Source: an uncultured Armatimonadetes bacterium
GTDB taxonomy: Bacteria; Armatimonadota; UBA5829; DTJY01
Direction: 5' to 3'
Assembly (NCBI GenBank): GCA_963717145.1
Contig: OY970325.1
Span: 5,219,248 to 5,283,247, forward strand
Length of the DNA stretch: 64,000 nucleotides
Shown: positions 2,531 through 54,155 of the stretch, one piece after another
Position numbering within the stretch: position 1 is the stretch's first letter
Layout of the letters: the number at the start of each line of letters is the position of its first letter
Notes under the pieces: model-generated
Seen by the model: only the letters and a program-made list of their open reading frames with translations
Told to the model about the DNA's origin: nothing
Databases searched by the model: none
Position numbers and translations under genes: made by a program

Positions 2531-2810
2531 CAGCCAAGATGTCCCCCTTACGAAGGGGGACCGGCCTCTGGGCCGAGGGGGTTTCCGCGTGTGGGTGCGC
2601 ATACAAACCTCCCCCGGCCTGCTGGCCGGCCCCTCCTTCGTAAGGAGGGGCGCAGACGGCTTCCGGGCCGAGGGGGTTGCCGCGCGCGGGTCCACGAAAC
2701 GGAACCGCCAAGACGCCAAGGACGCCAAGCGAACCTCCCCCGGCCTGCTGGCCGGCCCCTCCTTCGTAAGGAGGGGCGCAGACGGCCTGCTGGCCGAGGA
2801 GGTTTCAACA
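2531..2810. repeat. Cluster of three REP-like hairpin elements (family A: GGCCGGCCCCTCCTTCGTAAGGAGGGGC plus GAAACCTCCCCCGGCCTGCTGGCC)
   Basis: Near-identical copies at 2609-2680 and 2734-2810, plus a variant at 2531-2592. The same element occurs in inverted orientation at 7258-7309 and 7715-7770. Confidence 0.8.
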
Positions 2811-4960
2811 TGCGACAGATCGACTACAAGACATATCTCGACAAAGTGTACGGATGCTGGATCGGCAAGTGCGTCGCCGGCACGATCGGCGCTCCCTATG
2901 AAGGCGCGAAGGAGCTGTTCGACTTCGAGTACGACCCGAAGCTGATCGAGAAGATGCTCCCGAACGACGACCTCGACCTCCAGGTGCTCTGGCTGTCCGT
3001 CTTGGAAGAGAAAGGGATCGCCTTCACCTCCGACGACCTCGCCGATGCGTTCCTCAACAGGTGCAAGTACGCGCCCGGGGAGTACGCCTTCTTCAAGAAG
3101 AACTATGCCAGAGGCATCCATCCGCCGCTGAGTGGCGCGTACAACAACCGCTACTACATCGAGGGAATGGGCTGCCCGATCCGCTCCGAGGTATGGGCCT
3201 GCATCGCTCCCGGCAACCCGCAACTCGCCGCCGAACTCGCGGCGAAGGACGGGGTGCTCGATCACGCGGGGAACTCGGTCTACGCCGAGCAGTTCCTCGC
3301 CGCACTCGAGGCCGCCGCGTTCTTCGAGAGCGACATCGGGAAGCTCGTCGAGATCGGACTCAGTGTGATCCCCGAGGACTCGAAGATCGCCGGCCTGATC
3401 CGCGACGTCCGCGACTGGTGCCAGCTTGTGGGAGACGACTCGGGAGCGACTGTAGGGGCGTGCCTTGTGCCGCCTGTGACCGTCGACCAGGCGGCACAAG
3501 GCACGCCCCTACAGTCGCCTGTGACCGTCGACCAGGCGGCACAAGGCACGCCCCTACAGTCGCCTGCCGTAAGTGAGGACACCGGCGCTCCGGACTGGCG
3601 GTATGTCCGAAGCCAAATCCTGCGGAAGTACGGCCATCCGGACTGCACGAACATGTACCAGAACATGGGGATCACGCTCCTGGCGCTCTTCCTGGGAAGG
3701 GACTTCCTCGACACGACCATGATGGCGCTCAACTGCGGGTTCGACACCGACTGCACCTGCGCGACCGCCGGCTCGGTGCTCGGCATCATCCAGGGCGCGG
3801 AGTACCTGAGCACGACGCACGAGTTCCCCGAGCAGCGCTTCAAGCTCGGAGTCGATGCGCCTCGCCGATCCGACCGCGTCCTCGATCTGGCCGAGGATAC
3901 GTGCCTGATGGGCCTCCATTTCGCCGAGTACTTGAACAGGGATGTGGCGATCATTGACGCGCCGAAGCCGCCTCAAATCGAGCGGCCGGAGTACGAAACG
4001 GTCAAGGTCTCGATCGATTACCAGGGAGTCCCGGCGATGGGCATCGGTGAGACGCGAAAGATCAAGATTCTGTTTGACAACGAGCGCGTCAGCCCAGTCG
4101 GGATAGCGGTCTCCCTGACCGTCCCTGATGGCTGGGACGTATCCCCGACCTCCGCCGATCTGCTTCTCGATCCCGGCGTCAACTCCTGGGAGATCGAGGT
4201 GACCGTTCCGGCGGATATTCCGGTGCTGGATGAGCGGAACATGTTCGAGTTGGGATTCGATTCTTCCGCCGAGAGACCGGAAACCCCTCCCCAGCCCTCC
4301 CCGCAACGGAGAGGGAATCGCACTCTCTGCCCCCTCTCCGTTGCGGGGAGGGCTGGGGAGGGGTTTCCGGCTCGCTACCCATTCGGCATCGTCGGGGCGT
4401 CGGTGTGGGAAGTCTTCGGTCCATTCTGGCAGAACATCGGGCTCATCTCAGAGGGTACCAAGGACGAGATGGCGGATGTCGGCCGGATATACCACCTCAA
4501 CACGCGCGTCGATCCCGACCGGGAGTACATGACGCTCGACGAGATTCTCGGGCCGAAGATCACCGGCGACGCGGCGAAGGAAGGGCAGGTCGTCTGCTTC
4601 GGCGAGGACCTGATGTCGATGTCGGACGCGGTCGGATTCCAGGGGCCGTGCGCGGTGTATATGGTGCGGCGGATGATCTCGCCGGAGGACCGAACGCTCG
4701 GGGTGCTCGTCGGCCATACGGACGCGTACAAGCTGTGGATCAATGGGGAACTGATCAGCCGGCGGGACGACGTCGATTGGTGGACCGCCGAGAACGCGCA
4801 CATCCACGGGGTGAAGATCAACAAGGGCGAGAACATGATCGTCCTGCAGATGATCCGGCGCAGTTCCGAGGCGAAACTGAGCATCCTCTTCGTGAAGCGC
4901 GGCTCATGCTCCGAGCACTACTACGACTTCGCGTCGGTGAACCCGCGGCTCAGGGAGTAA
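2810..4960 (+). CDS. ADP-ribosylglycohydrolase family protein with a C-terminal beta-rich extension. Carries in-frame palindromic insertions.
   Basis: N-terminal GCWIGKCVAGTIGAPYEG and later GFDTDCTCATAGSVLG match the two conserved ADP-ribosylglycohydrolase metal-binding motifs. The caller ORF began at 2591 inside REP repeats. RBS-spaced ATG at 2810 (MRQIDYK). Confidence 0.6.
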   Translation: MRQIDYKTYLDKVYGCWIGKCVAGTIGAPYEGAKELFDFEYDPKLIEKMLPNDDLDLQVLWLSVLEEKGIAFTSDDLADAFLNRCKYAPGEYAFFKKNYARGIHPPLSGAYNNRYYIEGMGCPIRSEVWACIAPGNPQLAAELAAKDGVLDHAGNSVYAEQFLAALEAAAFFESDIGKLVEIGLSVIPEDSKIAGLIRDVRDWCQLVGDDSGATVGACLVPPVTVDQAAQGTPLQSPVTVDQAAQGTPLQSPAVSEDTGAPDWRYVRSQILRKYGHPDCTNMYQNMGITLLALFLGRDFLDTTMMALNCGFDTDCTCATAGSVLGIIQGAEYLSTTHEFPEQRFKLGVDAPRRSDRVLDLAEDTCLMGLHFAEYLNRDVAIIDAPKPPQIERPEYETVKVSIDYQGVPAMGIGETRKIKILFDNERVSPVGIAVSLTVPDGWDVSPTSADLLLDPGVNSWEIEVTVPADIPVLDERNMFELGFDSSAERPETPPQPSPQRRGNRTLCPLSVAGRAGEGFPARYPFGIVGASVWEVFGPFWQNIGLISEGTKDEMADVGRIYHLNTRVDPDREYMTLDEILGPKITGDAAKEGQVVCFGEDLMSMSDAVGFQGPCAVYMVRRMISPEDRTLGVLVGHTDAYKLWINGELISRRDDVDWWTAENAHIHGVKINKGENMIVLQMIRRSSEAKLSILFVKRGSCSEHYYDFASVNPRLRE
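3452..3557. repeat. Two tandem copies of the family B palindromic element (GTAGGGGCGTGCCTTGTGCCGCC ... GGCGGCACAAGGCACGCCCCTAC) inserted in frame in the CDS
   Basis: A 51-bp unit is duplicated in tandem. The frame is preserved and it translates to the repeated peptide PVTVDQAAQGTPLQS. Confidence 0.85.
4277..4370. repeat. About 94-bp perfect-arm palindrome (CCGGAAACCCCTCCCCAGCCCTCCCCGCAACGGAGAGGG ... CCCTCTCCGTTGCGGGGAGGGCTGGGGAGGGGTTTCCGG) inside the same CDS, in frame
   Basis: Inverted repeat read directly from the sequence. ORF 2591-4960 stays open across it. Confidence 0.8.
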
Positions 4961-5054
4961 GGGAGTGTGGGAGTATGGGAGTGTGGGGTATGGGAGTGTG
5001 GGAGTGTGGGAGTCCGGATCGCCCATACTCCCACACTCCCATACTCCCATACTC
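4961..5054. repeat. Hairpin built from GGGAGT/GGGAGTATG hexamer repeats, immediately after the stop codon at 4958-4960
   Basis: GGGAGTGTGGGAGTATGGGAGTGTGGG ... CCCATACTCCCACACTCCCATACTCCCATACTC. Related copy at 6184-6268. Confidence 0.8.
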
Positions 5055-5059
5055 TGCTA

Positions 5060-5959
5060 CTACTCCTCGTCGCCTCTGCCAAAGATGCGGGTCAGGAGGC
5101 CTGGCTTCCGGGGACTCTCGACCTCCGCCGGCTCATCGTCCGGCCAGTGGAGATCGTTCGCGGCTGCATTCAGTCGGCGGAAGAGATCGTCCGCGGATTC
5201 ATCCTGCTCGGTCTTATCCATGGAGTCGGCCTCAGATTGCGGCTTCACAATTGTTACCTGGGCGATCTCGGGTTCAGCCTCAGAGGCGGAGCGCGTCTCT
5301 TCGACCACCTCGGCCTCAACAGCGACCACCTCCTCACCTCGGGCTGACCGGGTCTCCGTGGGTCGAACGTCCCCCAGTGACTCCATGACAGGGGCGGGAG
5401 CGTCCACCGTCTGGGCGGAAGTGGTCTGTGCACTCGGCATCTCGACCGGCTCGGCTTCGACGTGCATCTCGGGCTTCGGCGACTCGACCTGCGGCGGAGA
5501 GGTCACGGGCGTCGTGACCGCGGAGACCTCTTTGGTCGGATCAGCCATTACCGGCCCGCTCGTCGTCCGGAAAATCTCGTCCTGCATCTCGCCGGCAAGC
5601 TCGTGTGTCCGGTGAAAGAGGTCGTTCACCCTGGACATGGTCTCTTCCCACTCGGGAGTGCCGCCGTCTTCGTTCTCCTTGGGGGCAGGCAGCTCCTTCA
5701 CCAGATGCGTGAACTCGGCGGAGAGCGCCAGGTTTGTGTCCTGCATCTGGTGGAGCACCGAACTGGCGCGATGGAGCATATAGTTCAACTCGCGCTGGCG
5801 TTGAAGTAGTTCGGAGGCGATGTGGTTCATCGAGGTCTCGCGAGTGCGGAAGTCCTCGACCTGCTGCTGGAGAAGCTTGCTCCGTTCGGCCAGAACAGCC
5901 TTGTGCTTGAGCGCTCTGAGCAGCTTGTCCTTCATGTTCTCGCTGAAATCTGGTGACAC
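5060..5959 (-). CDS. Hypothetical protein with a coiled-coil N-terminal half and an acidic, low-complexity C-terminal half
   Basis: 299-aa ORF with a coiled-coil-like N-terminus and no obvious stops in the surrounding GC-rich frame. No recognisable catalytic motif. Confidence 0.4.
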   Translation of the reverse strand: MSPDFSENMKDKLLRALKHKAVLAERSKLLQQQVEDFRTRETSMNHIASELLQRQRELNYMLHRASSVLHQMQDTNLALSAEFTHLVKELPAPKENEDGGTPEWEETMSRVNDLFHRTHELAGEMQDEIFRTTSGPVMADPTKEVSAVTTPVTSPPQVESPKPEMHVEAEPVEMPSAQTTSAQTVDAPAPVMESLGDVRPTETRSARGEEVVAVEAEVVEETRSASEAEPEIAQVTIVKPQSEADSMDKTEQDESADDLFRRLNAAANDLHWPDDEPAEVESPRKPGLLTRIFGRGDEE

Positions 5960-6183: not shown

Positions 6184-6268
6184 GAGTATGGGAGTGTGGG
6201 AGAATGGGAGAATGGGAGTGTGGGAGTCCGGAACGCCCATACCCCCATTCTCCCACACCCCCATTCTC
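6184..6268. repeat. Second copy of the GGGAGT-type hexamer-repeat hairpin, just upstream of the RBS of the sugar-binding protein gene
   Basis: GGAGTATGGGAGTGTGGGAGAATGGGAGAATGGGAGTGTGGGAGTCCGGAACGCCCATACCCCCATTCTCCCACACCCCCATTCTC. Confidence 0.8.
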
Positions 6269-10086: not shown

Positions 10087-10219
10087 GCGCTATCTCCCTT
10101 CGGGACGCTTGACCGCCAGGGTCAACATCCGCTTGGAGTCGATAGTGAGTGCCGACGAGTCGAGGTCGCCCCAGACCGACTCGATGGTGAGGCCGGCCTG
10201 CCTCATCATACTCCGCATC

Positions 10220-10847
10220 TCACGGCTCGGTGTAGACGCGCAGGGACTGACAACTCTCGGTTCGGCGACCGTCCGCGTAGATTGTTCGCTCCGTGGCATT
10301 GGTACGGCCCGTCGCAGGATCGAACGATCGCTCGGACACTATGATATCGCCCCGGGAGTTCTCACGCCAGTCGCGTGGCTGGAACCGCCGCATCAGCGAC
10401 TCATAGCAGTGCGTCTCCAGGAGGAATTGCCCGCCGGGCTTGAGGGCGCGCGAGATGCCGTCGAGCACCTTCTGGTCCTCCTCGTCGGATTCCAGGTAGC
10501 CAAAGGAGGTCCACATGTTGATTGCCGCGTCGAACTCCGAGTCGAAGGCCAGGTCGCGCATATCCATCTGCACGAGATTGGGCTCGAGGCCCTCTCGTGC
10601 GGCGGTTTCCCGGCACTTGCCAAGCATGAACTCGGATAGATCGACGCCCACGACTTCCCCGACGCATGAGGTCGAGGAGGTGCCTACCCTGCCCGCAGCA
10701 GAGGTCGAGCACCCGCGCGCCGGGCCGGATCGCCATCTTCTCGATCGCGAAGTCGACCTGCGTCCGGCTCGCGTCGCTCTCGCCGTACATCTCGAACCTC
10801 AGAGGGTCTTCCTCAGCGAACAACTCTTCGTACCAGGCCATGTGCAT
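10220..10847 (-). CDS. Class I SAM-dependent methyltransferase, split by an apparent 1-nt frameshift near 10650
   Basis: Motif I VLDLCCGQG sits in frame a (10656-10847). The rest of the fold sits in frame b (10220-10651). The junction reads RRGSR then VGVDLSEFML after a single-base shift. Confidence 0.6.
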
Positions 10848-10930: not shown

Positions 10931-12886
10931 ATGGTACGATTTGCCAGTCTTGTGGCCCGTGAGGGAAAGATATTGAAGACGACTGTTCTGCTGTCGGGCA
11001 ATGAGGCGATCGCCCGAGGCGCATATGAGGCCGGTGTTCGGGTCGCCGCGGGTTACCCCGGCACCCCGAGCACCGAGATACTTGAGAACATCACCCAGTA
11101 CGAGACGATCTACGCCGAGTGGTCGCCGAATGAGAAGGTTGCCCTCGAGGTCGCTCTCGGCGCTGCTCTCGGAGGCGCTCGGGCGCTCTGCACCATGAAG
11201 CACGTCGGCGTCAACGTCGCGTCCGACCCGCTGATGACCGCCTCGTACACCGGCATCAACCGTGGACTCGTGCTGGTGAGCGCCGACGACCCCGGCATGC
11301 ACAGCTCCCAGAACGAACAGGACAACCGTCACTACGCCCGGTTCGCCAAGATCCCGATGCTCGAACCGGCCGACAGCCAGGAGTGCAGGGACTTCACCAT
11401 CCGCGCCTTCGAGATCAGCGAAGCGTATGATACCCCGGTGCTGCTCCGAACGACCACCCGCGTGAACCACGGGAAATCGACCGTCAGCCTCTCTGAGCCG
11501 CAGGAGCCGGTCTTCGGCAGGTTTGAGTGCAACCTTCAGAAATACGTGATGATCCCCGCATACGCGATGAAGCGCCATGTGATCGTGGAGGAGCGGATGA
11601 TCCGCCTGAGGGAGTTGTCCAACGCCTCCGGTGTCGCCATTGCCCGTAGTGGCCGTGCCTCTGTGCCGGCCTCCGAGATCACTGGCCGGCACAGAGGCAC
11701 GGCCACTACGGGCAATGGCGACCTGCACCGCATCGAATGGGTCGACACGTCGATCGGCGTGATCACCTCGGGGATCGCATACCAGTACGTCAGGGAGGTG
11801 CTCCCGGAGGCGTCGGTACTGAAGCTCGGGATGACCTATCCGCTGCCCGACCGCCTGATCCGCGAGTTCGCGTCGAAGGTCGAGAAGCTGTACGTCGTCG
11901 AGGAACTCGATCCGTTCCTGGAGGATCAGATCAAGGCGCTCGGAATCGAGGTCATCGGCAAGGAGCGCTTCCCGATCATCGGCGAGCTGAACCCGAGGCT
12001 CGTCGCCGCTGGATTCGACTTGGGTAGGGGCGTGCCTTGTGCCGCCTGTGACGAGGTACCGGGCGGAGATGGACAGGCCACGGGCGGCACAAGGCACGCC
12101 CCTACAACCCAGCGGTTGGAGGGTGATATCCCCGGGCGGCCGCCGGTCCTCTGCCCGGGATGCCCTCACCGCGGGTTCTACCAGGTTCTGAAGAAGATGA
12201 AGGCCATCGTGACCGGCGACATCGGATGCTATACGCTCGGAGTGCTTCCGCCGCTCGAGGTAATGGACACCTGCATCTGCATGGGCGCATCGATCGGGAC
12301 CGCGCTCGGCATGAAGCGCGCTCAGTCGCCCGACGACAAGCGCCCGGTCGTGGCGGTGATCGGCGACTCAACTTTCGTCCACTCCGGGATCACCGGCCTG
12401 ATCGATGCCGTCTACAACGGCACGGCCGCGACGATATGCATCCTCGACAACTCCACGACCGCGATGACCGGCGGGCAGGAGCATCCGGCGTCGGGGAAGA
12501 CGCTCATGGGCAGTCCGGCGCCGAAGCTCGATCTGGCGGCCCTCGCACGTGCGATCGGTGTCGAGGACGTGCTGGTGGTCGATCCATACGATCTGGAGGC
12601 AGTCGAGAAGGCGCTCAGGTATGCGACCCGGACGGATAAGCCTTCGGTGATCATTACGAACAGGCCGTGCGTGCTGAGAGACAGGTCGGAGAAGCCGCCG
12701 AAGTCCTCCATCGCGCTGGAAATGTGTACCGGCTGCCAGGTGTGCTTCCGGATCGGATGCCCGGCGATGGAGTCGGTGGCGGTCGACGACAAGTTGCGCG
12801 CGCGGATCAACGCCAACCTGTGTCAGAGCTGTGGTGTCTGCATCCAGGTATGCCGCTTCGAGGCCATTGGGAGGCCGGAGGAATGA
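10931..12886 (+). CDS. iorA: Indolepyruvate:ferredoxin oxidoreductase alpha subunit, carrying two in-frame palindromic-element insertions
   Basis: N-terminal VLLSGNEAIARGAYEAGV and GYPGTPSTEI thiamine-pyrophosphate-enzyme motifs. C-terminal 4Fe-4S motifs CTGCQVCFRIGCP and CQSCGVCIQVC. 651 aa. Confidence 0.85.
   Translation: MVRFASLVAREGKILKTTVLLSGNEAIARGAYEAGVRVAAGYPGTPSTEILENITQYETIYAEWSPNEKVALEVALGAALGGARALCTMKHVGVNVASDPLMTASYTGINRGLVLVSADDPGMHSSQNEQDNRHYARFAKIPMLEPADSQECRDFTIRAFEISEAYDTPVLLRTTTRVNHGKSTVSLSEPQEPVFGRFECNLQKYVMIPAYAMKRHVIVEERMIRLRELSNASGVAIARSGRASVPASEITGRHRGTATTGNGDLHRIEWVDTSIGVITSGIAYQYVREVLPEASVLKLGMTYPLPDRLIREFASKVEKLYVVEELDPFLEDQIKALGIEVIGKERFPIIGELNPRLVAAGFDLGRGVPCAACDEVPGGDGQATGGTRHAPTTQRLEGDIPGRPPVLCPGCPHRGFYQVLKKMKAIVTGDIGCYTLGVLPPLEVMDTCICMGASIGTALGMKRAQSPDDKRPVVAVIGDSTFVHSGITGLIDAVYNGTAATICILDNSTTAMTGGQEHPASGKTLMGSPAPKLDLAALARAIGVEDVLVVDPYDLEAVEKALRYATRTDKPSVIITNRPCVLRDRSEKPPKSSIALEMCTGCQVCFRIGCPAMESVAVDDKLRARINANLCQSCGVCIQVCRFEAIGRPEE
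11636..11719. repeat. Family C palindromic element (GTAGTGGCCGTGCCTCTGTGCCGGCC ... GGCCGGCACAGAGGCACGGCCACTAC) inserted in frame within iorA
   Basis: Perfect inverted repeat. The frame is maintained and it translates to IARSGRASVPASEITGRHRGTATTGNG. Related copies at 24166-24230, 24326-24350 (half) and 50770-50800 (half). Confidence 0.85.
12024..12105. repeat. Family B palindromic element inserted in frame within iorA
   Basis: GTAGGGGCGTGCCTTGTGCCGCC ... GGCGGCACAAGGCACGCCCCTAC, translating to GRGVPCAACDEVPGGDGQATGGTRHAPT. Same family as 3452-3557, 25661-25721 and 54097-54155. Confidence 0.85.
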
Positions 12887-13461
12887 GCAATCGCACGACG
12901 AACATCAGACTGGCCGGTGTCGGCGGGCAAGGAATACTCGTAGCCAGTGAGGCGCTCTGCGATGCGCTGCTCGCGAGCGGCTTCGACGTGAAGAAGAGTG
13001 AGGTCCATGGGATGGCCCAGCGCGGCGGCACAGTGAACTCCGACGTGCGCTTCGGGGTCAAGGTGTGTTCCCCCATCATACCGGAGGGTGATGTGGACGT
13101 GCTGCTGGCATTCGAGCAGATGGAGGCGCTTCGGTATCTGCCGTCACTCAAGGCCGGCGGAGTCGTGATTGTGAATCGGCAGCGGATACTCCCGTCGGCG
13201 GTCGCCTCGGGGAAGCTGGAATACCCGGCCGACATCGAGAGCCGGCTCGCGGACCACGCGGGCGAGGTGATCTCGATCGATGCGCTGGACTTGGCGAAGG
13301 AAGCCGGCTCAGTCCGGAGCGTGAACGTCTGCCTGCTCGGGGCGCTGTCGCGGTTCCTCGAAGTCGAGGAATCGGTGTGGGAGAGCGTTCTCACCGAGCG
13401 GTTCAGGAACAAGGGGCTCGAGGCGAACCTGAAGGCCTTTGCGCTGGGGCGGGCCGTTTGA
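12883..13461 (+). CDS. iorB: Indolepyruvate:ferredoxin oxidoreductase beta subunit
   Basis: ATGA overlap with the iorA stop. MSNRTTNIRLAGVGGQGILVASEAL is the typical pyruvate-ferredoxin/flavodoxin oxidoreductase start. 192 aa. Confidence 0.8.
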   Translation: MSNRTTNIRLAGVGGQGILVASEALCDALLASGFDVKKSEVHGMAQRGGTVNSDVRFGVKVCSPIIPEGDVDVLLAFEQMEALRYLPSLKAGGVVIVNRQRILPSAVASGKLEYPADIESRLADHAGEVISIDALDLAKEAGSVRSVNVCLLGALSRFLEVEESVWESVLTERFRNKGLEANLKAFALGRAV

Positions 13462-18804: not shown

Positions 18805-18912
18805 TCCCCGGAAATCTCCCGCGATGGATGCTGAATCAAGTTCAGCATGACGCGTCGCGCTACCGTCATGCTGAACTTGATTCAGCATCCATCGGGGGGA
18901 GGTTCCGGGGCG
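18805..18912. repeat. About 100-bp palindrome between the binding-protein gene and the first permease gene
   Basis: GGATGCTGAATCAAGTTCAGCATGACGCGTCGCGCTACCGTCATGCTGAACTTGATTCAGCATCC, with extending flanks CCCCGGAAATCTCCC and GGGAGGTTCCGGGG. Confidence 0.75.
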
Positions 18913-24153: not shown

Positions 24154-24165
24154 CAGATGGCTCAT

Positions 24166-24230
24166 GTAGTGGCCGCGCCTCCGTGCCGGCCACTGAGGTG
24201 GTAAGGCCGGCACAGAGGCACGGCCACTAC
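24166..24230. repeat. Family C REP hairpin downstream of paaK2
   Basis: GTAGTGGCCGCGCCTCCGTGCCGGCCACTGAGGTGGTAAGGCCGGCACAGAGGCACGGCCACTAC. Confidence 0.8.
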
Positions 24231-24401
24231 ATGCTATTTCACATCCATTTTGCTCGAGGAGGTGATCTTACTGCACCTGAGCTTGGTTTCTATCTGATAA
24301 GGCGAAACAAGGACAGCCTTATCAGGTAGTGGCCGGTGAATGCCGGCATAGTACGAGCGGATTTCGGTCCGCGATTCGAAAATACAGAGGAGGTAAGGAA
24401 A

Positions 24402-25556: not shown

Positions 25557-25660
25557 GAATCCGAGGGAATGGAGTGGTGGAGTGTCGGGATAACGGGCAC
25601 CTCACCACACGATAGGCGCGAGGGCCGGGGGCATCTGCTCCCGGCCCTTATGCTGACAAT

Positions 25661-25721
25661 GTAGGGGCGTGCCTTGTGCCGCCCGTTGCCGCGTGTCGGG
25701 CGGCACAAGGCACGCCCCTAC
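25661..25721. repeat. Family B REP hairpin in the intergenic region
   Basis: GTAGGGGCGTGCCTTGTGCCGCCCGTTGCCGCGTGTCGGGCGGCACAAGGCACGCCCCTAC. Confidence 0.8.
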
Positions 25722-25792
25722 ATCGTGATTGGCGGTAGGACTTCCGACGCCCGAGGGCGAAGAATACCCCAGAGGCATCCGCGAAGATCACC

Positions 25793-27783
25793 ATGGCAGT
25801 CGAACCCTACGATCCGCGACTCTTATCCGCAGCAGACACCGCGACCGAGCACGAATCCGCCCAGGCCGATCCTTCGACAGGCTCAGGAGGCATCACCTGG
25901 CGCGCGCTCCTGATCGGGTTCATCGCCATCATCCCCGGCGTCTTCTGGGGCGTCTACGGCGATGTCGTCTCCCAGACCGACCTGACCTCGACCTCGCTGA
26001 TGATGCCGCCGGTCCTCATCCTGATGGCGCTCCTCGTCCTCAACGGCATCGTCAGGCGCATCAGGCCGATATGGGTGCTCGGCCGCACGGAGTTGATCAC
26101 CATCTACGCGATGCTTACCGTCTCCGTGATCCTCTCCGGCATGGGGATGCTCCAGTTCCTGATGACATCCCTCGGCGCGGTCCCGCACTTTGCCACCCCC
26201 GAGAACGGATGGGGCGCTTACCTCAACATGGTCCCGCACTGGATCATGCCGAAGCTCTCCGCCATCGACGGCTTCTACGTCGGCAACAAGCCGATCCCCT
26301 GGTCTGCGTGGACGAACCCGATCCTCCTGTGGAGCGGATTCCTCTTCGCGATGCTCTTCTGCATGATGTGCATCAACACGATCCTCCGCAAGCAGTGGAT
26401 CGAGCGGGAACGGCTCACATATCCCATAGTCCAACTTCCGCTGGAGATGACCGACCCGAAGAGCCGGTTCTTCTCGAACAGGCTGATGTGGGCAGGGTTC
26501 TTCACCGCCGCCGCACTCGAGACGCTGAACAGCCTCGCGTTCCTCTATCCGAATGTTCCCCAGGTGCAGTTGCGGGCGTTCGACCTTCAGCCGTTCTTCA
26601 GCACCGCGCCGTGGAATGGGGTGGGGTACTTCCCGACGACCTTCTACCCGCTCGCCATCGGACTCGGGTTCGTGCTCGCGACCGACGTGAGCTTCTCGTG
26701 CTGGTTCTTCTACCTCGTGACCAAGGTGGAGGGAGTCCTCACCTCAGCGCTCGGCTGGACGGGTGGGGCGGGCGCGATGAGCGCTCCGCCGTATCTCGCC
26801 CAGCAGAGCGTCGGCGGGTTTATCGGCATCGGCGTCGTGGTGATCTACCTCGCGAGGAATCACCTCAGGGACGTCTTCGCGAAGGTCTTCACCCGCGACT
26901 CCGGCGTTGACGATTCCGAAGAGCCGATGAGCTATCGGATGGCGGTCTTCGGGCTGGGGCTCGGATTCCTCATCATGGTGATATTCTGCGTGGCGGTCGG
27001 CGTCTCTCCGGCTGTGGGGATCGCGTATCTCGGCCTCTACATGCTCTTCGCCACGACGATCAGCCGACTCCGCGCCGAAGCCGGGCCTGCATGGGTGATG
27101 GGCCCGGGTGGGACGCGCTCGACAGCCTCACCCGCCCGATCGGGACCGGGGCATTCAGCGGGGGAAACCTCGTCGCGCTCGCCTACTTCCACTGGTTCAG
27201 CATCGAGATGAGGTGCTGTCCGATGGGCGTGCAGGCCGAGGGGATGAAGATGGCGCAGGCGACCCGAACGAAGCAGCGGGTGATGACGATCGTTCTCCTC
27301 GCGGCGATGGTCATCGGGATCGCGGTCGGATTCTGGGCGTGCCTCGCGGTATGGTACAAGTTCGGCGCGGGGACGGCGAAGGTCGAGCCGTGGCGCACCG
27401 GTATGGGCGCGGCGCCATTCGACCGGGTCACGGACTACATGCAGAACCCGCAGAGGGCCGATGTCGCGGGCATCCTGGCGATCGTCTTCGGCACGGGGTT
27501 CACGTTCCTGCTCAGTCTGATGCGGAGCCGGTTCGTATGGTTTCCGCTCCATCCGGCGGGATACGTGCTCGCGAACACCGGCACGATGTACTGGCTCTGG
27601 TGTCCGTTCCTGCTGGCGTGGATCATCAAGGTCCTGATCATCCGCTACGGCGGGATCAAGGGCTACCGGACCGCGCTCCCATTCTTCCTCGGCCTCGTCC
27701 TCGGCGACTACATAGCCTCGAGCCTCTGGGCCCTCGCGGGCTCCGTTCTCGGCATCACCATGTACCGCTGCTTCCCCTGCTGA
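25793..27783 (+). CDS. Large polytopic membrane protein, paralog 2 (reading frame shifts around 27090-27210)
   Basis: ORF 25793-27211 continues in ORF 27091-27783. Together they align end to end with paralogs 1 and 3 (ILRKQWIERERLTYP, WFFY, FPLHPAGYVL, IRYGG). Confidence 0.55.
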
Positions 27784-27845: not shown

Positions 27846-28298
27846 CTAAGCAGTAGTGGCGACGATCTCCGACGGGGTGATCGCGGTGATCTCGGGGTAT
27901 CGAGCGAAGTCGGAGGGATTCAGGGTCACCAGATGAGTGATGCCGTGCGCCATCATGAAGGCGACTATCCGTGCATCGTGGGCCTTCTTGCCGAGGACGG
28001 AGTATGACTGGACTACCGTCCGCCAACGAGCCGCCATGTCTTCAGGCTCAGGCAGACAAGGAAAGAGTATCTCGATCTCGTCCATGTGGCCGTCGGCCTT
28101 CTCGAGGTCGAACCCCAGTCCATTCACATCCAGCGGCCTGGTAGCCACAACCCAGGATTCTATCAGCACCTGAGCACACACATGGCAAGGCACACCCGAC
28201 TTGCGAAGGGAATCCAGCGCCGCTACGATCTCAGGGTTGCTCGGATCGCTCAGTTCGAAGAACCTGAGGAGCACGTTGGTGTCGATCAGGAAGGTCAC
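27846..28298 (-). CDS. vapC: Type II toxin, PIN-domain ribonuclease (VapC-like)
   Basis: MTFLIDTNVLL start with the conserved acidic residues of the PIN fold. 150 aa. 4-nt overlap with the upstream antitoxin gene. Confidence 0.8.
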   Translation of the reverse strand: MTFLIDTNVLLRFFELSDPSNPEIVAALDSLRKSGVPCHVCAQVLIESWVVATRPLDVNGLGFDLEKADGHMDEIEILFPCLPEPEDMAARWRTVVQSYSVLGKKAHDARIVAFMMAHGITHLVTLNPSDFARYPEITAITPSEIVATTA

Positions 28299-28528
28299 AG
28301 CCGGTCCTCATACATATTCTCACGCCTGAGGGCCTCATCGGGGATGCGGACGCCGGATACCCGCCCGGCAAGGAGTCTCCGCCAGGCTGCATCTTTTGAC
28401 GAAGTGCGCCGACGCTGAGGCTTCTCAACCGCGAGTTGGATTACCAGCGACTGGTTGATCGGCAGGTCCACCGGATCGTCGGGAACGATGGTCTTGCCAT
28501 CATAATGCGCGCGGATTCTCATTGCCAT
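28295..28528 (-). CDS. vapB: Type II antitoxin (VapB-like, DUF104-like small beta protein)
   Basis: MAMRIRAHYDGKTIVPDDPVDLPINQSLVIQLA resembles the DUF104 antitoxin pattern. Translationally coupled to vapC. Confidence 0.55.
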   Translation of the reverse strand: MAMRIRAHYDGKTIVPDDPVDLPINQSLVIQLAVEKPQRRRTSSKDAAWRRLLAGRVSGVRIPDEALRRENMYEDRL

Positions 28529-28560
28529 GGGATTCACCTCGCAAGCATTATACCACATCG

Positions 28561-28800
28561 GCTCTGCATCGGTCGGGATACGTGTTGGTGAACACCGGCA
28601 CGATGTACTGGCTCTGGTGTCCGTTCATGGTGGCATGGTTCGTCAAGGTCCTGATCATCCGCTACGGCGGGATCAAGGGCTACCGGACCGCGCTCCCGTT
28701 CTTCCTCGGGCTCGTCCTCGGCGACTACATCGCCTCATCCCTCTGGGCCCTCGCGGGCTCCGTCCTCGGCATCACGATGTACCGCTGCTTCCCGTGCTGA
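28561..28800 (+). pseudogene. Duplicated 3' fragment (last 80 codons) of the paralog 2 membrane-protein gene. It forms a direct repeat with 27541-27783.
   Basis: About 230 bp nearly identical to 27545-27783. Both encode YVLxNTGTMYWLWCPF...IRYGGIKGYRTALPFFLGLVLGDYIASSLWALAGSVLGITMYRCFPC and stop. Confidence 0.7.
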
Positions 28801-29034
28801 TGGTCGATGGTTGATGGTTGATGGGGAAACGTCAGCCCTGAGTGTGCTGGTGAATGACGTCGTGTATAGAAGGGCGGGCCACCGAAGGGAGGACATTCCG
28901 ACGACCGCTGACGGGCAGTTCCCGCTAGTTGTGCCTGCCCCCCGTTTCTTGTCCCTCATTTCTGTCCGGTGAAGGAACTCCTCGGCATAAAGATGAATGC
29001 TCTAATCACTAGCTAACCCGCAGAGGTAGGGCGC

Positions 29035-32000
29035 ATGGGCGACAAGCCAAAGAAGGTTCGGACACCGATACCGGCGGAGATCGAGCGGCAAGTAAAAGTC
29101 GAGGCAGGCTTTCGCTGCAGCATACCAAGATGTGGAAGCACGTCAGTCTTGGAGATCCACCATATCGATGAAGACGCGAGCAATCATGATTCCACGAATC
29201 TGCTTGTTCTCTGTTCAATCTGTCACGCGCGTATAACCAGAGGGGAGATCGACCAGAAAGCTTGCCGGATGATCAAGCAGGCCATGCTCTCACACGGCGC
29301 GTCACAAGATGAGTTGCTCGCTATCAAGGACACCATCTTCTCAGAGATGCGCAGGCTGGTTGGTCAGCAGGATGTGTCCAGACCTCTTGACGAAGCCGAG
29401 AAGGGGAATATCGGAGTCCCTCTTGGCGTCTTGGACTCGAGTGGAAGACCGGAGAATGGCTTGGTTCCCGTGCGCCCGCCGTTCGCAGATGATCTGAGGA
29501 TCGACGAGAAAGCGGCTATCATGGACGCTCGGGCGCTCACCGAAGTCGACTACATATTCTTTCGGCGTTACTCGGATGGTCGCTCCTCTGTTATCTCTGC
29601 GTACGTTGTCGATAACACCGACGATAGGCTTACTCACGATGGGCTTGCCCAACTGCATCGAAAAGTCTGGCTGCGTGGCACAGTCCCCCTGCTCTACGTC
29701 TTCCAGCATACTCACATAGACCTGCTCGCCTGTGCAAGAGGAGCGGACTTCTGGAGAGATGACGAGGACAGATGCCACTACAACCCTGTGAAATGTATAC
29801 AGATTGCCGGTGACATAACTAATGAACTGAAACGCCTAGCCGAAGGGACGTTTTGGGAAGACCCGGCCAACAGGGAACTTGCCGATTATACAAAAGCTTC
29901 ACACCAGTGTTTGATACAGGCCGTTGTCGAGGCGGATCGCGACCTAAGAGGTAAGGAGAACCCGACACTCCGTCATCTCCTCCTACTGATGGTGCTGATC
30001 AAGTACCTGGAGGATCGCCGTGTTTTTCCGGAGGGTCGGCTATCGCAATTCAGGCCGAGTGCGGAGACCTTCTTCGACATACTCCGAGGTGGCGATCCAT
30101 CCCAAGTCTACGAATGCCTGGATGCCCTGGAATCCAGGTTTGATGGCGATATATTCGCGTTACCCCGCGTCGATATTACCTCTGAGAGACTACACAGCTT
30201 CGCTCGTCTTGTTGAAGCGAGAACGATAGGGCACCAGAGATATCTCTGGACCAGTTTTCATTCGAATACCTGCCGGTGGAGATCATAAGTCATCTGTATC
30301 AACGCTTCGTTGAAGGTGGTCATGGGGCAGTCTACACCCCACCGTTCCTCGCTGCGCTTCTACTAGATCATGCGATGCCCTACGAAGGGCTACGGGGTGA
30401 CGAACGAGTGCTCGACCCGGCGTGCGGCTCCGGCGTATTCCTAGTCGCTGCTTTTCGTAGACTCGTCAATCACTGGCGAAGCAAACACGGGTGGAAGCCG
30501 CCCGATGTAGAGGTGCTCAAATCCATCGCAAAGCATAGCATATTTGGCGTTGAGCTTGATGAGTTCGCGGTCAGTCTCACGGCTTTCAGTTTGTCATTGG
30601 CCATCTGTGACTCATTACATCCCAACGTTATCTGGGACAGGCTGAAGTTTGATCCCTTGTGTCATTCGAATGTGCTACAATCCGACTTCTTTGAGGTACT
30701 GCTTGCCTCTAGGTTAGGCAAGCGTACGATTCTGAATGATGAGTTCGATGTAGTGCTTGGCAATCCTCCCTTCGTGAGCATTCTGTCTGAGGCAGCCAGT
30801 GAAGTGAACCGCGTTTCTAGACGAGATACTTCCCGTGTACCAGTCTCCGACAAGCAGTTAGCTTATCTGTTTCTAGAGCAATCCTTTAGCATTCTTCGCC
30901 CTGGGGGTCGAGTCTGCCTTATTCAGCCTGCGGGATTGCTTCACAACAGGATGGCCAAGGCGTTCCAGCAGGGCTTGTTTCGGAAGCAGACGATCCATGC
31001 GATTCTGGATTTGGCTTCCATACGTAATCTTTACGACGGGGCCGATCCCAGGACCATCGCAGTCTCGGCCACACACAGCCCGCCAAGAAGCGATCATTGG
31101 ATCGAGCATCTGGTGTTTCGTCGTACAGTTAGCGTCAGAGAACGGATATGTTTCGAGCTAGATCACTATGATCGTTTCACGGTGTCCCAGCATGACGCGC
31201 AGACCGACCCCTATGTATGGAGGGTGAATCTATTCGGTGGAGGTCGTCTTCTCGATCTTTCCAGAAGACTAAGAGAGATGCCGACACTGCGGCAGCATCT
31301 CGACCATATGACTGAACGCAGGGGATGGGAGTATGGGGAAGGGTATATCGCAGGAAAGAAGGGCAAGAGATCGAGAGCCCTGTTCCTAACTGGCAAACCG
31401 CTCCTGCCAGCAGTGGCCTTCACAGATGAAGGGATAGATCACACCCAGCTGTCTACCGTGAAGGAGACCACCTTTGCTTCTCCCCGCAGAGAAGCATTCT
31501 ACACGCCGCCACTTATCTTAATTAAGGAAACAGCCTCTCTTCCCATAGTCCTATGGGATGAGGGGCCGATCGCATACGGACATAGGATTGTGGGCATACA
31601 CGCGCCATCGGCGCAATCAGCCGTCTTGCAGTCTATGTATCAGATGCTCAGAGAGCGGCATGCTACATATCGGTTCTGTACCGCTCTACATAGTACGGAA
31701 GCGGGGATAGACAGAGCTACCTCCATCCGAAAGCAGGATCTGGATGCCCTTCCATATCCCGAAAACGCGGAAGAGCTAGCCTTCTGTGATTGGGAGCAGT
31801 CACTCTGTGATGACGTCACTGGCCTGATGTTTGACTACTTACTGAAGGGAGAGGAGTCAATCCTTCTCAGGACAGCGGCAAGCAATGGAGAACTTGATCA
31901 GTACTCAGGCACGTTTGTCCAGATGCTAGGAAGCATCTACCCGAACCTCAAGGCATCCTTTCCACGGTTCACGAACGGCCTCATCTGCCAACCTTTCTAC

Positions 32001-32228
32001 TTCGACGAACTGCCAGATTTGTCATGGCTAGATGAGCCGATGTCGGGCAAGCTGGACGCGCTTATCTATGACCAGCGGCAGCATCTGCGAACGGTCCGTG
32101 TATTGCGTCTATACCTGGATAATGTGCTGCTGCTGATCAAGCCTGACAGGTTGCGGTATTGGATCAGATCTACGGCCATTCGTGATGCAGATGAAACATT
32201 GCTTCACCTACAGGAGTGGGGTTACTAG
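29035..32228 (+). CDS. HNH nuclease fused to a PglX/MmeI-like gamma-class N6-adenine DNA methyltransferase with a C-terminal specificity region. Two caller ORFs are joined across an apparent 1-nt frameshift at about 30200-30240.
   Basis: HNH at residues 25-70: CSIPRCGSTSVLEIHHIDEDASNHDSTNLLVLCSICH. The helical linker (LLLMVLIKYLEDRRVFPEG, FDGDIFAL) and ISLDQFSFEYLPVEIISHLYQRFV continue in frame 0 upstream of the caller GTG start at 30276. Methyltransferase motif I is VLDPACGSGVFLV and motif IV is VVLGNPPFV. Local GC is clearly below the flanking sequence. Confidence 0.65.
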
Positions 32229-32230
32229 TC

Positions 32231-32971
32231 ATGAACAGCGGTTATCCCTACTCAGCGCCAATCGGGAGGATCACAGCGGGTATTGAGCTGGGCACACTCG
32301 CTAACAAGATTATCGATTTCGTTCGCCAGCAGCTGCCAGCATGGAGGGACCACCCCGACCGTGATGATGTCCAGTCGGAGTTCCGCCTAACCTCCCAACT
32401 CTGTGTATTCCTCAATGCCAGGGCGCGCCAGGCTCGCTTCTCTATGATCCAGTTCCATCACGAGCTACCGCAGCCCCGGAGTCGAAGCGTCGATCTATCA
32501 GTACATCCGTTGGATCCCCTGCAGATCGATGCCCGACTCTTCTCAGTATTTCACCCAGTTCTGGTGTTAGAGTGCAAGCGACTTCCCCCTCCAGATCCAA
32601 AACGCGAGAGGGAGTATGTGACAGGCGATGCGAACAAGCGGAGCGGCGGCATACAACGTTTCAAATTGGGTTTGCATGGTTCTGACACCGATGTCGCGGG
32701 TATGATTGGATTTCTCCAGGAGGCCACCGCTCCACATTGGCATAGCACAATCAACGGATGGATTCTTGAGCTATGCAACGGCACTCCGGCCGATGGATGT
32801 ACTTGGAGCAGTGACGAGGTTCTATCGGAGATCGATTGCAGTGTTTCCGGTGGCGTTACCAGCTACTGCTCAGTTCACTCGAGGACTTCCTCAAGATCAG
32901 GCCAGCCTATCACCATCCATCATGTGTGGGTTGCGATGAACCAGCTACAGGGTGCTTGTAGAACGAGTTGA
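32231..32971 (+). CDS. PD-(D/E)xK-like nuclease-fold protein, translationally coupled to the methyltransferase gene
   Basis: Stop TAG at 32226-32228 and ATG at 32231. Possible nuclease motif SVDLSVHP ... PVLVLECKRL (D ... E-x-K). Confidence 0.45.
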   Translation: MNSGYPYSAPIGRITAGIELGTLANKIIDFVRQQLPAWRDHPDRDDVQSEFRLTSQLCVFLNARARQARFSMIQFHHELPQPRSRSVDLSVHPLDPLQIDARLFSVFHPVLVLECKRLPPPDPKREREYVTGDANKRSGGIQRFKLGLHGSDTDVAGMIGFLQEATAPHWHSTINGWILELCNGTPADGCTWSSDEVLSEIDCSVSGGVTSYCSVHSRTSSRSGQPITIHHVWVAMNQLQGACRTS

Positions 32972-33130
32972 TGCCGGTAAGTGGGGTGGTTGGTGGGGCT
33001 ATCTCAGGGAAAGATGTGACCAAATCGTTCTACAGGGGTTCTGTAGAACGATTTGACGCCGGTAAGTGGGGTATTTGGTGGAGGTAACTCACGGAAAGAC
33101 GCCGCCAACGCGGTCTACAGACAGTCTGTA
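32955..33130. repeat. Boundary repeat block at the right end of the low-GC island: direct repeats of TGTAGAACGAnTTGAnGCCGGTAAGTGGGGT plus two hairpins
   Basis: Copies begin at about 32958 and 33041. Hairpins CAAATCGTTCTACAG/CTGTAGAACGATTTG and CGCCGCCAACgcgGTCTACAG/CTGTAGACggaGTTGGCGGCG. Confidence 0.7.
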
Positions 33131-33342
33131 GACGGAGTTGGCGGCGTTTTCATGCCGATTGGGAATCACTGCTGGGGAGTTTGCGCCGTCCGGTAGCCGA
33201 GGGAACCCTGCTGAGAGCCGAGTGGCAGGCCATAATATCTAATAGGTAACGAGTAATGAGTAAGCAGGAGGAACGCGCGCTCATCTTTCGCCGGTCATTA
33301 CTTGTTACCCATTACCCATTGCGCCTTACCGGGAGGATACCC

Positions 33343-34002
33343 ATGGCTGGAGATTATGTTCCACATTCGGAGTTGAAGCTGATCAGTTGGGCGGAGAAGT
33401 TCGTGGGCTTCCTGGAGGATCATGCCGCCGAGACCGGCCTGCCTCCCGAGGAACTGGCGGCGGTCCGGTCGGAGTTCGATGAGTTCGCAAGCGCCTTTGC
33501 CGCGCACGACGCCGCTCGGGTTCACGCAAAGGCAATGTGCAGCGTGAAGGATGATGCCCGGCGGCCACTGGTGAACAGACTTCGCTCGATCGCCACGCGC
33601 GTGAAGGTCAATATGACCATCGATGCCGAGGTCAAGAACGGGGCACGGGCAGTCATCGGCAAGTCGCCTCGACACCCGCGGATGGGAGTATCCGACGACC
33701 GCCCGCACGCGATCATAGATACCGGGCAGCGGCTGAGGCACATCTTCCGCATCATGAACGAGAATACACAGGGCATACACAAGGCTCGGCCGTCGGATGT
33801 CGTCGCCTGCGAGCTTTGGAGGCGGAACGGCGATGGGACCGGCGACTGGAAATACGTTGGCGGCAAGTCGGGCAAGCCGTTTGCTATCCTGTATCGCGAG
33901 GAGGACTCCGGCAAGCAGGTGCAGTACCGGCTGCGCTGGGTCGGCCGCCAGGGTGTTAAGGGCGGCTGGAGCGGAATCAAGATCGCGACGATCGCGGCGT
34001 AA
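33343..34002 (+). CDS. Hypothetical protein, paralog of the gene at 62769-63443
   Basis: Shared N-terminus (MAGDYVPHSELKLISWAEKF versus MGGYLPGSDLELQVWMNKF) and C-terminus (RWVGRQGVKGGWSGIKIATIAA versus RWVYTNGVKGAWSDLESATIAA). Confidence 0.5.
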   Translation: MAGDYVPHSELKLISWAEKFVGFLEDHAAETGLPPEELAAVRSEFDEFASAFAAHDAARVHAKAMCSVKDDARRPLVNRLRSIATRVKVNMTIDAEVKNGARAVIGKSPRHPRMGVSDDRPHAIIDTGQRLRHIFRIMNENTQGIHKARPSDVVACELWRRNGDGTGDWKYVGGKSGKPFAILYREEDSGKQVQYRLRWVGRQGVKGGWSGIKIATIAA

Positions 34003-54087: not shown

Positions 54088-54096
54088 CCATGGGCT

Positions 54097-54155
54097 GTAG
54101 GGGCGCGCCTTGTGCCGCCCGAGATAGGGCTGCGGGCGGCACAAGGCGCGCCCCT
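54097..54155. repeat. Family B REP hairpin (GCGC variant)
   Basis: GTAGGGGCGCGCCTTGTGCCGCCCGAGATAGGGCTGCGGGCGGCACAAGGCGCGCCCCTAC. Confidence 0.8.

Follow-up and report, generated by a model that had tools for sequence, protein, structure and literature searches.

Probable in-frame insertion of two GTAG-tagged REP dimers in iorA of an uncultured Armatimonadetes bacterium

iorA and its two palindromic inserts

The window, that is, the whole 64,000-nucleotide stretch of DNA analysed here, comes from a genome with a G+C content of 61% and contains iorA, the gene for the alpha subunit of indolepyruvate:ferredoxin oxidoreductase, followed by iorB (Table 1). The start codon of iorB overlaps the stop codon of iorA (ATGA), and the arrangement permitting translational coupling is therefore intact. 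The predicted protein carries the Pfam domains POR_N (residues 30-191), TPP_enzyme_C (430-575), and Fer4 (594-646) and has the architecture of an IorA, with POR_N, TPP_enzyme_C, and two [4Fe-4S] clusters encoded ahead of iorB. A protein search returned 8000 homologues, several called IorA by their sources, at identities of up to 84% by BLASTP or 90-91% over aligned columns, and the gene order iorA-iorB-paaK was common to the window and two relatives, L091 and L092. Because orthologues begin MKTTVLLSG, the true start of IorA may be the TTG codon at 10973. Frameshifts affected at least two further genes of the window, including the methyltransferase gene immediately upstream of iorA; some gene decay or indel error therefore exists in the assembly.

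A sequence-only reading of this DNA had described iorA as a single reading frame containing in-frame palindromes of two different repeat families, and both palindromes were found. The second lay exactly where that reading had put it (12024-12105), while the first proved longer, 11633-11722 and not 11636-11719. The two peptides it had quoted are correct substrings of IorA; each insert had been credited with about 27 residues without a break in the frame, and the frame is indeed unbroken but insert 1 adds 30. The palindrome of insert 1 has arms of 39 nt (100% complementary) around a 12-nt loop; that of insert 2 has arms of 27 nt (96%) around an unusually long spacer of 28 nt, which possibly holds a scrap of the native linker.

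Table 1. Positions of the genes, inserts, and repeat copies in the window
Feature	Position	Strand	Remarks
Family B copy, three arms	3446-3563		dimer plus 45-nt tandem duplication of spacer and right arm; in frame in gene 2810-4960
Palindrome unrelated to families B and C	4277-4370		perfect 39-nt arms; in frame in gene 2810-4960
iorA, indolepyruvate:ferredoxin oxidoreductase alpha subunit	10931-12886	+	651 aa, one ORF
Insert 1, family C GTAG REP dimer, head-to-head	11633-11722		90 nt, 30 codons, V235-D264 (VAIARSGRASVPASEITGRHRGTATTGNGD)
Insert 1, left REP unit	11646-11671	+	GTAGTGGCCGTGCCTCTGTGCCGGCC; preceded by copy-specific extension GTCGCCATTGCCC (11633-11645)
Insert 1, right REP unit	11684-11709	-	exact reverse complement of left unit; followed by mirrored extension (11710-11722)
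Insert 2, family B GTAG REP dimer, head-to-head	12023-12106		84 nt, 28 codons, G365-T392 (GRGVPCAACDEVPGGDGQATGGTRHAPT)
Insert 2, left REP unit	12024-12046	+	GTAGGGGCGTGCCTTGTGCCGCC; core comparison
Insert 2, right REP unit	12083-12105	-	core comparison
iorB (POR gamma-type subunit)	12883-13461	+	192 aa; matches the 192-aa PF01558 gene after iorA in L091
Family C dimer, extragenic	24163-24233		10 nt past stop of second paaK-like gene
Family B dimer, extragenic	25656-25726		core match
Family C single unit, extragenic	50774-50799	-	core match
Family B dimer, extragenic	54093-54161		6 nt past stop codon; same variant GCGCGCC in both arms

Each insert is built of two REP units, GC-rich imperfect stem-loops within the 20-40 nt typical of such units, with the stem directly after GTAG (z about -3.4). 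A single unit of insert 1 folds as GTAG plus a stem-loop at -6.3 kcal/mol (z -3.45) and one of insert 2 at -7.1 kcal/mol (z -3.44). In both inserts the units are inverted and form a larger hairpin, with DNA folding energies of -62.8 and -38.8 kcal/mol (z -15.7 and -7.5) for inserts 1 and 2, respectively; within the iorA mRNA the corresponding RNA hairpins reach -97 and -69 kcal/mol. None of 100 shuffled controls had any match to either family core. Insert 1 is flanked by CCTCCGGT and CTGCACCG, insert 2 by GACTTGG and AACCCAG, and no direct repeat indicative of a target-site duplication was found in the flanks of either.

Repeat families B and C in and beyond the window

All nine family B arms and all five family C arms in the window open with GTAG, and the arms pair with GTAG on the outside as head-to-head dimers. 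The families have a common loop, TGCCT(Y)TGTGC, and their stems differ by compensatory changes (GGGCG/CGCCC in B versus GGCCG/CGGCC in C); to judge from sequence, they are two related families. The shared core of family B (23 nt) is identical at 3452, 25661, and 25721, and the copies at 54097 and 54157 have one mismatch per arm. That of family C (26 nt) is identical to one arm at 24205-24230, the other arm having two mismatches. The intergenic loci listed by the sequence-only reading as perfect copies of the inserts were all found, but the list lacked the three-armed family B copy and the single family C unit, and it is the REP core alone that the copies have in common, since whole elements differ in spacers and outer flanks. 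The outer flanks beyond GTAG are palindromic yet copy-specific, extending up to 13 nt, and arms within one dimer resemble each other more than they resemble the arms of other copies. Counted over the 64 kb of the window, family B occupies four loci and family C three, the extragenic ones 6-100 nt past stop codons.

A second gene in the window, encoding a member of the ADP-ribosylglycohydrolase family (2810-4960), also contains two in-frame palindromes. The 53-aa segment encoded by its three-armed family B copy is absent from most orthologues; its other palindrome is likewise absent from orthologues and folds as RNA at -102 kcal/mol.

Beyond the window, the family B core was again dimeric in independent metagenome assemblies. 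An exact scan of the GTDB genome collection returned zero matches to this core, and a protein-based follow-up scan found only relatives at no more than 55% identity. In the viral contigs scanned, family B was present in one contig and family C was absent. One metagenome match, L002, had a phage-like look; none of its ORFs was RAYT-like when the translations were inspected. A search for in-frame copies elsewhere with the concatenated insert peptides gave no match, and Rfam gave no family at gathering score, with sub-threshold matches to generic (miRNA-like) hairpins only.

A single-contig assembly with several frameshifted genes fits indel errors, and the palindromes might on that account be artefacts of assembly or sequencing. 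We consider this very improbable: the families are multi-copy with conserved cores at several loci, the dimer architecture of family B recurs in assemblies made independently, and the inserts, which lie in real genes, have lengths exactly divisible by three, a constraint to which artefacts would not be subject.

Orthologues, predicted structure, and selection

The window IorA was aligned with 120 homologues. At the first insertion site the spacing is exactly 16 residues in 118 of the 120 homologues (118 of the 121 aligned proteins) and 46 in the window protein; the site 1 element is unique to the window genome among the aligned IorA proteins. At the DNA level, insert 1 corresponds to a clean 90-nt gap in iorA of the three closest orthologues, L092, L091, and L093 (89, 83, and 74% nucleotide identity). 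The second site corresponds to the variable linker that precedes the C-terminal TPP domain (L353 to R403), which is the most variable segment of the IorA family and measures 24-39 aa in the 120 homologues and 49 aa, the longest, here. No orthologue carries a peptide homologous to insert 2 at this site; some carry other GTAG elements there.

That the segments are native IorA sequence, palindromic by chance, is scarcely credible. The length of site 2 does vary across the family, but the spacing at site 1 is fixed and the same cores are found outside genes. When 77 distant iorA genes were screened at the DNA level, long inverted repeats turned up only in L092 and L093, both REP-bearing; a protein-level 'antisense palindrome' screen of the 120 homologues picked out the P0012 cluster, one weak case, and no others. 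We therefore rejected native origin, which is contradicted by the orthologue gap, the site 1 spacing, and the extragenic cores; the earlier claim of insertion holds up against this comparison.

GTAG elements sit in the site 2 linker of at least four separate lineages (the window genome; L092; L093; and L095/L096, which are Geobacteraceae-like), as REP dimers of no fewer than four different sequence families. Those of L092 and L093 appear to stand in place of most of the native linker and not to add to it. The Geobacteraceae-like group has a common diverged linker of 34 aa, with a REP unit still recognisable in one member, and on its sequence appears to retain the element as ordinary, inherited protein. 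This repeated occupation, the apparent replacement of native sequence, and the shared diverged linker would fit inserts kept for use, either exapted as flexible linkers or as hairpins tuning mRNA processing, pausing, or IorA:IorB stoichiometry. We hold such usefulness to be improbable. Recurrence is explained equally well by tolerance of the only freely variable segment, the site 1 element occurs in one genome alone, L091 (the closest REP-poor relative) has no insert at either site, and the insert peptides are not conserved between lineages.

An AlphaFold2 model of IorA (pLDDT 84, pTM 0.86) folds well but fell below a pLDDT of 50 at residues 240-262, within insert 1, and 373-407, at insert 2; outside these segments, confidence was low only at the N-terminus (1-11) and over a short stretch (435-438). 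Insert 1 lies between domain I and domain II and insert 2 between domain II and the TPP_enzyme_C domain. The inserts thus map to low-confidence loops at domain junctions and not between thiamine-pyrophosphate and ferredoxin motifs, where the sequence-only reading had placed them. The first two domains align to the alpha subunit of 2-oxoacid:ferredoxin oxidoreductases (OFOR; PDB 1yd7, 6n2n), and the match of the model to 6n2n chain A spans 413 columns. Neither a PDB sequence search nor the 50 best matches of a fold search included an IOR structure, the matches being OFOR alpha subunits and generic ThDP enzymes only. The alpha subunit of the heterodimeric enzymes resembles the first two IorA domains; unlike them, IorA fuses an alpha-like and a beta-like (TPP_enzyme_C) part, and insert 2 lies in the fusion linker.

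All of the more than 100 invariant IorA columns are retained, cluster cysteines included. The dN/dS of iorA relative to its relatives is 0.12-0.15, a value that mostly covers pre-insertion time, as the perfect or near-perfect arms mean that the insertions may be too recent for decay to show. Synonymous and nonsynonymous changes number 64:26 on the window branch and 46:32 on the sister branch; no relaxed selection is seen in iorA, the window branch being no worse than its sister. Each insert has a length divisible by three and is read in one of the two frames in which the TAG of GTAG does not form a codon. By frame analysis, two inserts would survive in frame by chance with a probability of about 0.05, and with all four intragenic palindromes of the two genes leaving the ORF open the chance falls to about (1/3 x 2/3)^4 = 0.002.

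These data bear on whether iorA was recently inactivated, its inserts being in frame and stop-free by luck, as in a young pseudogene or a gene poorly expressed because of mRNA hairpins. The perfect arms imply recency, and other genes of the window, including the nearest one upstream, are frameshifted. If the very stable mRNA hairpins have any effect, they could impair iorA expression, and the 39-bp perfect RNA duplex of insert 1 could plausibly serve as a substrate for RNase III or as an obstacle to ribosomes. The two-insert probability, though small, is also not negligible. We nevertheless judge inactivation unlikely: the joint chance over four palindromes is far lower, every invariant residue is kept, the window branch has no nonsynonymous excess, both sites are inter-domain loops, and other lineages tolerate REP elements in the same linker, one apparently by inheritance. 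The insert-bearing IorA predicted here is probably still made and active.

Identity and origin of the elements

GTAG-tagged REP families, and head-to-head dimers of them known as REPINs, have been described previously (Bertels & Rainey 2011, PMC3116915; Di Nocera et al. 2013, PMC3733652). The elements in the window resemble them in having a terminal GTAG beside a short GC-rich stem-loop, in the inversion of two units with GTAG outside to give one long hairpin, in the presence of several families per genome, and in the location of the window's extragenic copies just downstream of genes. They differ in the copy-specific palindromic outer flanks beyond GTAG and in their host, which is neither a proteobacterium nor Opitutus (best named matches Armatimonadota-like, 52-67% identity); the host gene, too, is a core catabolic oxidoreductase, where the literature stresses replication and repair genes. 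Intragenic in-frame GTAG REP dimers encoding 20-30 aa, sometimes two per gene, are known from free-living, high-GC bacteria, and orthologous genes have been found with different REPs at roughly corresponding positions (Di Nocera et al. 2013, PMC3733652). The judgement that in-frame insertion in such a genome is remarkable was therefore overstated. With intragenic dimers and double insertions already described, the iorA case is a fresh example of documented behaviour, and its inserts reveal no new kind of element.

The sequence-only reading had likened the inserts to Rickettsia palindromic elements (RPEs). The behaviour is analogous: palindromic repeats lie in frame inside the ORF of an apparently functional iorA, adding short peptides at tolerant positions of likely functional genes. 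The anatomy is that of GTAG REP dimers of the REPIN type, in a genome of 61% G+C as against AT-rich obligate intracellular hosts. The tag of RPE-4 and RPE-6 is CGTC, and RPE-1 is longer (PMC3733652); by tag and unit length, no sequence relationship is apparent, and membership was rejected.

Bacterial MITEs are small, non-autonomous palindromic DNAs that can lie inside ORFs and supply peptide sequence, and the iorA inserts are like them in each of these respects. In-frame insertions of MITEs are the subject of reviews (PMC3184786, PMC10969869) and of work on Coxiella (PMC5896051). MITEs are defined by IS-derived terminal inverted repeats and target-site duplications (PMC3733652). This identity was also rejected, as neither insert has a flanking direct duplication and the units are REP stem-loops of 23-26 nt. 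No IS was identified in the window.

We consider it probable that the inserts are head-to-head GTAG REP dimers (REPIN type) that landed in frame in the connectors of iorA after the split from the closest sampled relatives, with the enzyme probably kept. The reconstructed course is as follows: in a REP-rich genome with two related, non-autonomous families resident, each element would have entered iorA after the lineage diverged from those relatives, one in the link from domain I to domain II and the other in the linker that fuses the counterparts of the separate alpha and beta subunits of other 2-oxoacid:ferredoxin oxidoreductases. IorA would have gained 30 plus about 25-28 residues of disordered surface loop. 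Mobilisation, we infer, would be by a RAYT (an IS200/IS605-like Y1 HUH transposase, whose gene typically has its REPs on either side) via single-stranded hairpin intermediates; a scan of 31 window ORFs revealed no RAYT (PF01797), the window being about 1.2% of the 5.37-Mb source contig. The visible copies would be those that selection has spared, since insertions out of frame or at other places in the gene would be purged.

REP-type hairpins, extragenic by name, can on this account add loops of 25-30 residues to a conserved redox enzyme at its domain junctions, and in this poorly studied, REP-rich lineage the 64 kb would hold four in-frame insertions, two of them in iorA. Inserts of this type skew gene calling and annotation by homology, show where a protein tolerates insertion, and supply new linker sequence. 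The reoccupation of one IorA linker by unrelated REP families provides a system for asking whether insertion is targeted or only filtered by selection.

We regard as doubtful the joint proposal that the alpha/beta-fusion linker of IorA is a preferred, and not merely tolerant, landing site and that, separately, the dimers form by fold-back synthesis. If the first part were true, a local DNA feature would target REP insertion, or REP-encoded peptides would be recruited as inter-domain linkers. Simple cut-and-paste of a fixed unit leaves the copy-specific palindromic flanks, and the possible native scrap in the spacer of insert 2, unexplained. Together with the likeness of arms within a dimer, these flanks hint that dimers may arise from one unit plus donor flank via fold-back synthesis and may not move as fixed doublets.

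Insertions in iorA

The product of iorA carries POR_N and TPP_enzyme_C domains and two 4Fe-4S motifs; its homologues number in the thousands, several of them called IorA by their sources. Two palindromes lie within the gene (see table). In codon register, insert 1 is exactly 90 nt (V235-D264) and insert 2 exactly 84 nt (G365-T392). Folded as single-stranded DNA, palindromes 1 and 2 reached -62.8 kcal/mol (z -15.7) and -38.8 kcal/mol (z -7.5), respectively, and the cores of the two repeat families involved, B and C, never occurred in shuffled sequence. The sequence-only reading was essentially correct in its coordinates and peptides for both hairpins; its figure of about 27 residues per insert needs correction for insert 1, which is 30 residues long.

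Palindromic elements and the genes that carry them
Feature	Location	Position	Strand	Description
iorA	window	10931-12886	+	single ORF, 651 aa
Palindrome 1 (insert 1, family C)	iorA	11633-11722		39-nt arms, 100% complementary; loop 12 nt
Palindrome 2 (insert 2, family B)	iorA	12024-12105		27-nt arms, 96%; spacer 28 nt
ADP-ribosylglycohydrolase-family gene	window	2810-4960	+	ADP_ribosyl_GH N-terminal domain; two further in-frame palindromes
Three-armed family B copy	gene 2810-4960	3446-3563		45-nt tandem duplication; reads in other open frame
Unrelated perfect palindrome	gene 2810-4960	4277-4370		39-nt arms; in frame
Family C dimer	window, extragenic	24163-24233
Family B dimer	window, extragenic	25656-25726
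Family B dimer	window, extragenic	54093-54161
Lone family C unit	window, extragenic	50774-50799
L092 elements	metagenome contig L092	3411-3472; 2390-2443
L093 site 2 element	metagenome contig L093	3960-4039		GTAGGGGCGAAGCATTTGC...GCAAATGCTTCGCCCCTAC

That the insertions are in frame had also been claimed from the sequence, and at site 1 comparison with homologues bears this out. When the window IorA was compared by alignment to 120 homologues, the invariant residues R222 and E269 were 16 residues apart in 118 proteins and 22 apart in two; a spacing of 46 was peculiar to the window. A clean 90-nt gap was present in all three orthologous metagenome iorA DNAs aligned (nucleotide identity to the window gene 89% for L092, 83% for L091 and 74% for L093). 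Site 2, between GEL and RPPVLCPGCPHRG, varies more in length than any other segment of the family, with 49 residues in the window as compared to 24-39 in homologues. Judged by these alignments, neither inserted segment is native IorA sequence.

Residues 21-192 and 269-324 align to the alpha subunit of solved 2-oxoacid:ferredoxin oxidoreductases, and TPP_enzyme_C begins at residue 430, which places insert 1 in the connector joining domains I and II and insert 2 in the linker fusing the alpha-like and beta-like halves, rather than between the TPP and ferredoxin motifs as previously proposed. An AlphaFold2 model, built from an alignment of 119 sequences, was confident overall (mean pLDDT 84.1, pTM 0.86). 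Confidence was low at the N-terminus, over 240-262 and 373-407, and briefly at 435-438; the two long stretches are the inserts.

All family-invariant columns are retained, among them those of the TPP motif and the cluster cysteines, and the overlap of the iorB start with the iorA stop (ATGA) is preserved. Against relatives, dN/dS was 0.12-0.15; parsimony with L091 as outgroup gave 64 synonymous and 26 nonsynonymous changes on the window branch and 46 and 32 on the sister branch. These data suggest that iorA is still under constraint, and neither dN/dS nor the branch counts show relaxed selection, although both mostly span the time before the insertions, which the perfect arms suggest were recent. 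Frame preservation is the stronger argument for constraint. GTAG dimers read open in two of the three frames, so a random insertion would keep the ORF with a probability of about 1/3 x 2/3; each of the window's four intragenic palindromes leaves its ORF open (chance probability ~0.002 for all four). Both palindromes of the ADP-ribosylglycohydrolase-family gene are missing from most orthologues, and two orthologous proteins (P0126 and P0127) carry different inserts at the first site.

GTAG dimers and their copies

Read from the outside inward, each arm consists of GTAG followed by a GC-rich stem-loop. The family B unit is GTAG-GGGCG-TGCCTTGTGC-CGCCC and the family C unit GTAG-T-GGCCG-TGCCTCTGTGC-CGGCC; their loops are near-identical, the differences between their stems are compensatory, and single units fold as predicted. 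In each element two units stand face to face with GTAG outside, a layout known as the HH dimer from Di Nocera et al. (PMC3733652) and as the REPIN from Bertels and Rainey (PMC3116915). The two iorA inserts are intragenic GTAG REP dimers and, because that class is already documented, a further case of a known kind: REP dimers that code for 20-30 residues, and genes with two insertions, have been described, most abundantly in Opitutus terrae (PMC3733652). The earlier likening to Rickettsia palindromic elements holds for behaviour and fails for element identity, because the tag here is GTAG and that of RPE-4 and RPE-6 is CGTC (PMC3733652). No Rfam family matched the elements. The RAYT transposase is the defining partner of REPINs; no Y1 transposase domain was detected among the 31 window ORFs scanned. 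A MITE reading was rejected, since neither insert is flanked by the target-site duplication that defines such elements.

Extragenic copies in the window lie 6-100 nt past stop codons, the usual REP position. They had been taken for perfect copies of the iorA hairpins; only a core of 23-26 nt is shared, not the entire element. The family B core was found in nine metagenome contigs with G+C contents of 43 to 67%, in dimer arrangement in three of them (L004, L008 and L009, one truncated where its contig ends); the sample that yielded L004 also yielded the closest iorA relative. On a phage-like contig of 49% G+C (L002, 11155-11811, minus strand), single family B units stand at gene ends, one of which forms part of the N-terminal sequence of a called ORF (..GGTRHAPT..), which shows that the core is present across very different genomes.

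Palindromic repeats are dense in the window, with at least 13 loci of several families. Strong extragenic palindromes of other families occur at 34147-34247 (perfect 43-nt arms), 18806-18910, 4953-5061, 6184-6268 and 50504-50567; GGGAGTGTGGGAGTATGGGAGT-type arrays flank genes at 4953 and 6184, and the 50504 element is similar to the intragenic REP of L093 (GGGGCGAAGCATT). A separate family upstream of the ADP-ribosylglycohydrolase gene (2540-2817) comprises a 73-nt self-complementary unit, AACCTCCCCCGGCC...GGCCGAGGGGGTT, which is present twice and contains an internal GCCCCTCCTTCGTAAGGAGGGGC hairpin.

Recurrent REP occupation of the IorA linker

At site 2, relatives carry different GTAG-type elements. 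That of L092 is TAGGAGCGCCCGTGTCCTC...GAGGACATGGGCGCTCCTA, with a further copy of its family just upstream of iorA; here, as in L093, the element seems to stand in place of most of the native linker. In the linker of the Geobacteraceae-like L095, two perfect GTAG stem-loops form a heterodimer; L096, a relative of L095, retains just one of them, and the diverged 34-residue linker is common to a group of proteins. Site 2 of L091, which comes from a REP-poor contig, is without an element. The relatives' linker elements are read in the frame AGG GGC ... CCT AC in all cases checked. With 77 more distant iorA genes scanned, long inverted repeats were found only in L092 and L093. Site 2 is thus a recurrent REP site, and site 1 is occupied in this genome alone. 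Different REPs at approximately one site are also known from recB of two Xanthomonas species (PMC3733652). That unrelated REP families have repeatedly occupied one and the same IorA linker is the most useful lead from this work.

Proposed movement and formation of the dimers

Two GTAG REP dimers lie in frame at inter-domain connectors of an otherwise constrained-looking gene, and the in-frame insertion of two mobile palindromes is well supported as genuine. Going by established REP/RAYT and IS200/IS605 biology, the elements would move as single-stranded hairpins via a Y1 HUH transposase, and selection would purge every copy except in-frame, stop-free ones in tolerant loops. The insert-bearing protein is putatively active, and the predicted mRNA hairpins (-97 and -69 kcal/mol) would be overcome by translation, not cleaved.

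Five of seven dimers have palindromic yet copy-specific bases outside GTAG (11633-11645/11710-11722, 3446-3451, 54093-54096 and 24163-24165; L004 1379-1383); in the family C copy within iorA these bases number 13 and are non-native to the gene. Both arms of a dimer share private variants absent from other copies, a pattern that suggests derivation of each dimer from a single unit plus flank. The insert 2 spacer (12047-12082) is 28 nt long, as compared to 11-13 nt in other family B and C dimers, and contains GGACAGGCC (Gly-Gln-Ala), which reads in frame and matches native linker codons of L091 exactly; a match of this length was reached in ~1.2% of shuffles. Outer flanks, private variants and long spacer would fit fold-back copying of one unit and its flank or, alternatively, arms that enclose a remnant of native sequence.

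The methyltransferase gene adjoining iorA (10107-10847, minus strand) differs from its L092 orthologue by a 5-nt deletion and by an insertion of 1 nt, giving two overlapping ORFs; the gene is a pseudogene, or else the assembly has an indel error here. A DUF6785/DUF6784 gene (25793-27783, plus strand) is broken into overlapping ORFs (25793-27211 and 27091-27783), with intact paralogues at 343-2499 and 50822-52870, and a sulfatase (37583-38305) is apparently truncated. A lower-GC island at 28000-34000 (53-57% vs 61% overall) probably represents a mobile restriction-modification / toxin-antitoxin region: it has an Eco57I/MmeI-like N6 DNA methylase (30276-32228), a PIN-domain protein (27846-28298) and an ORF at 29035-30288 whose match to HNH endonucleases is weak and sub-threshold.
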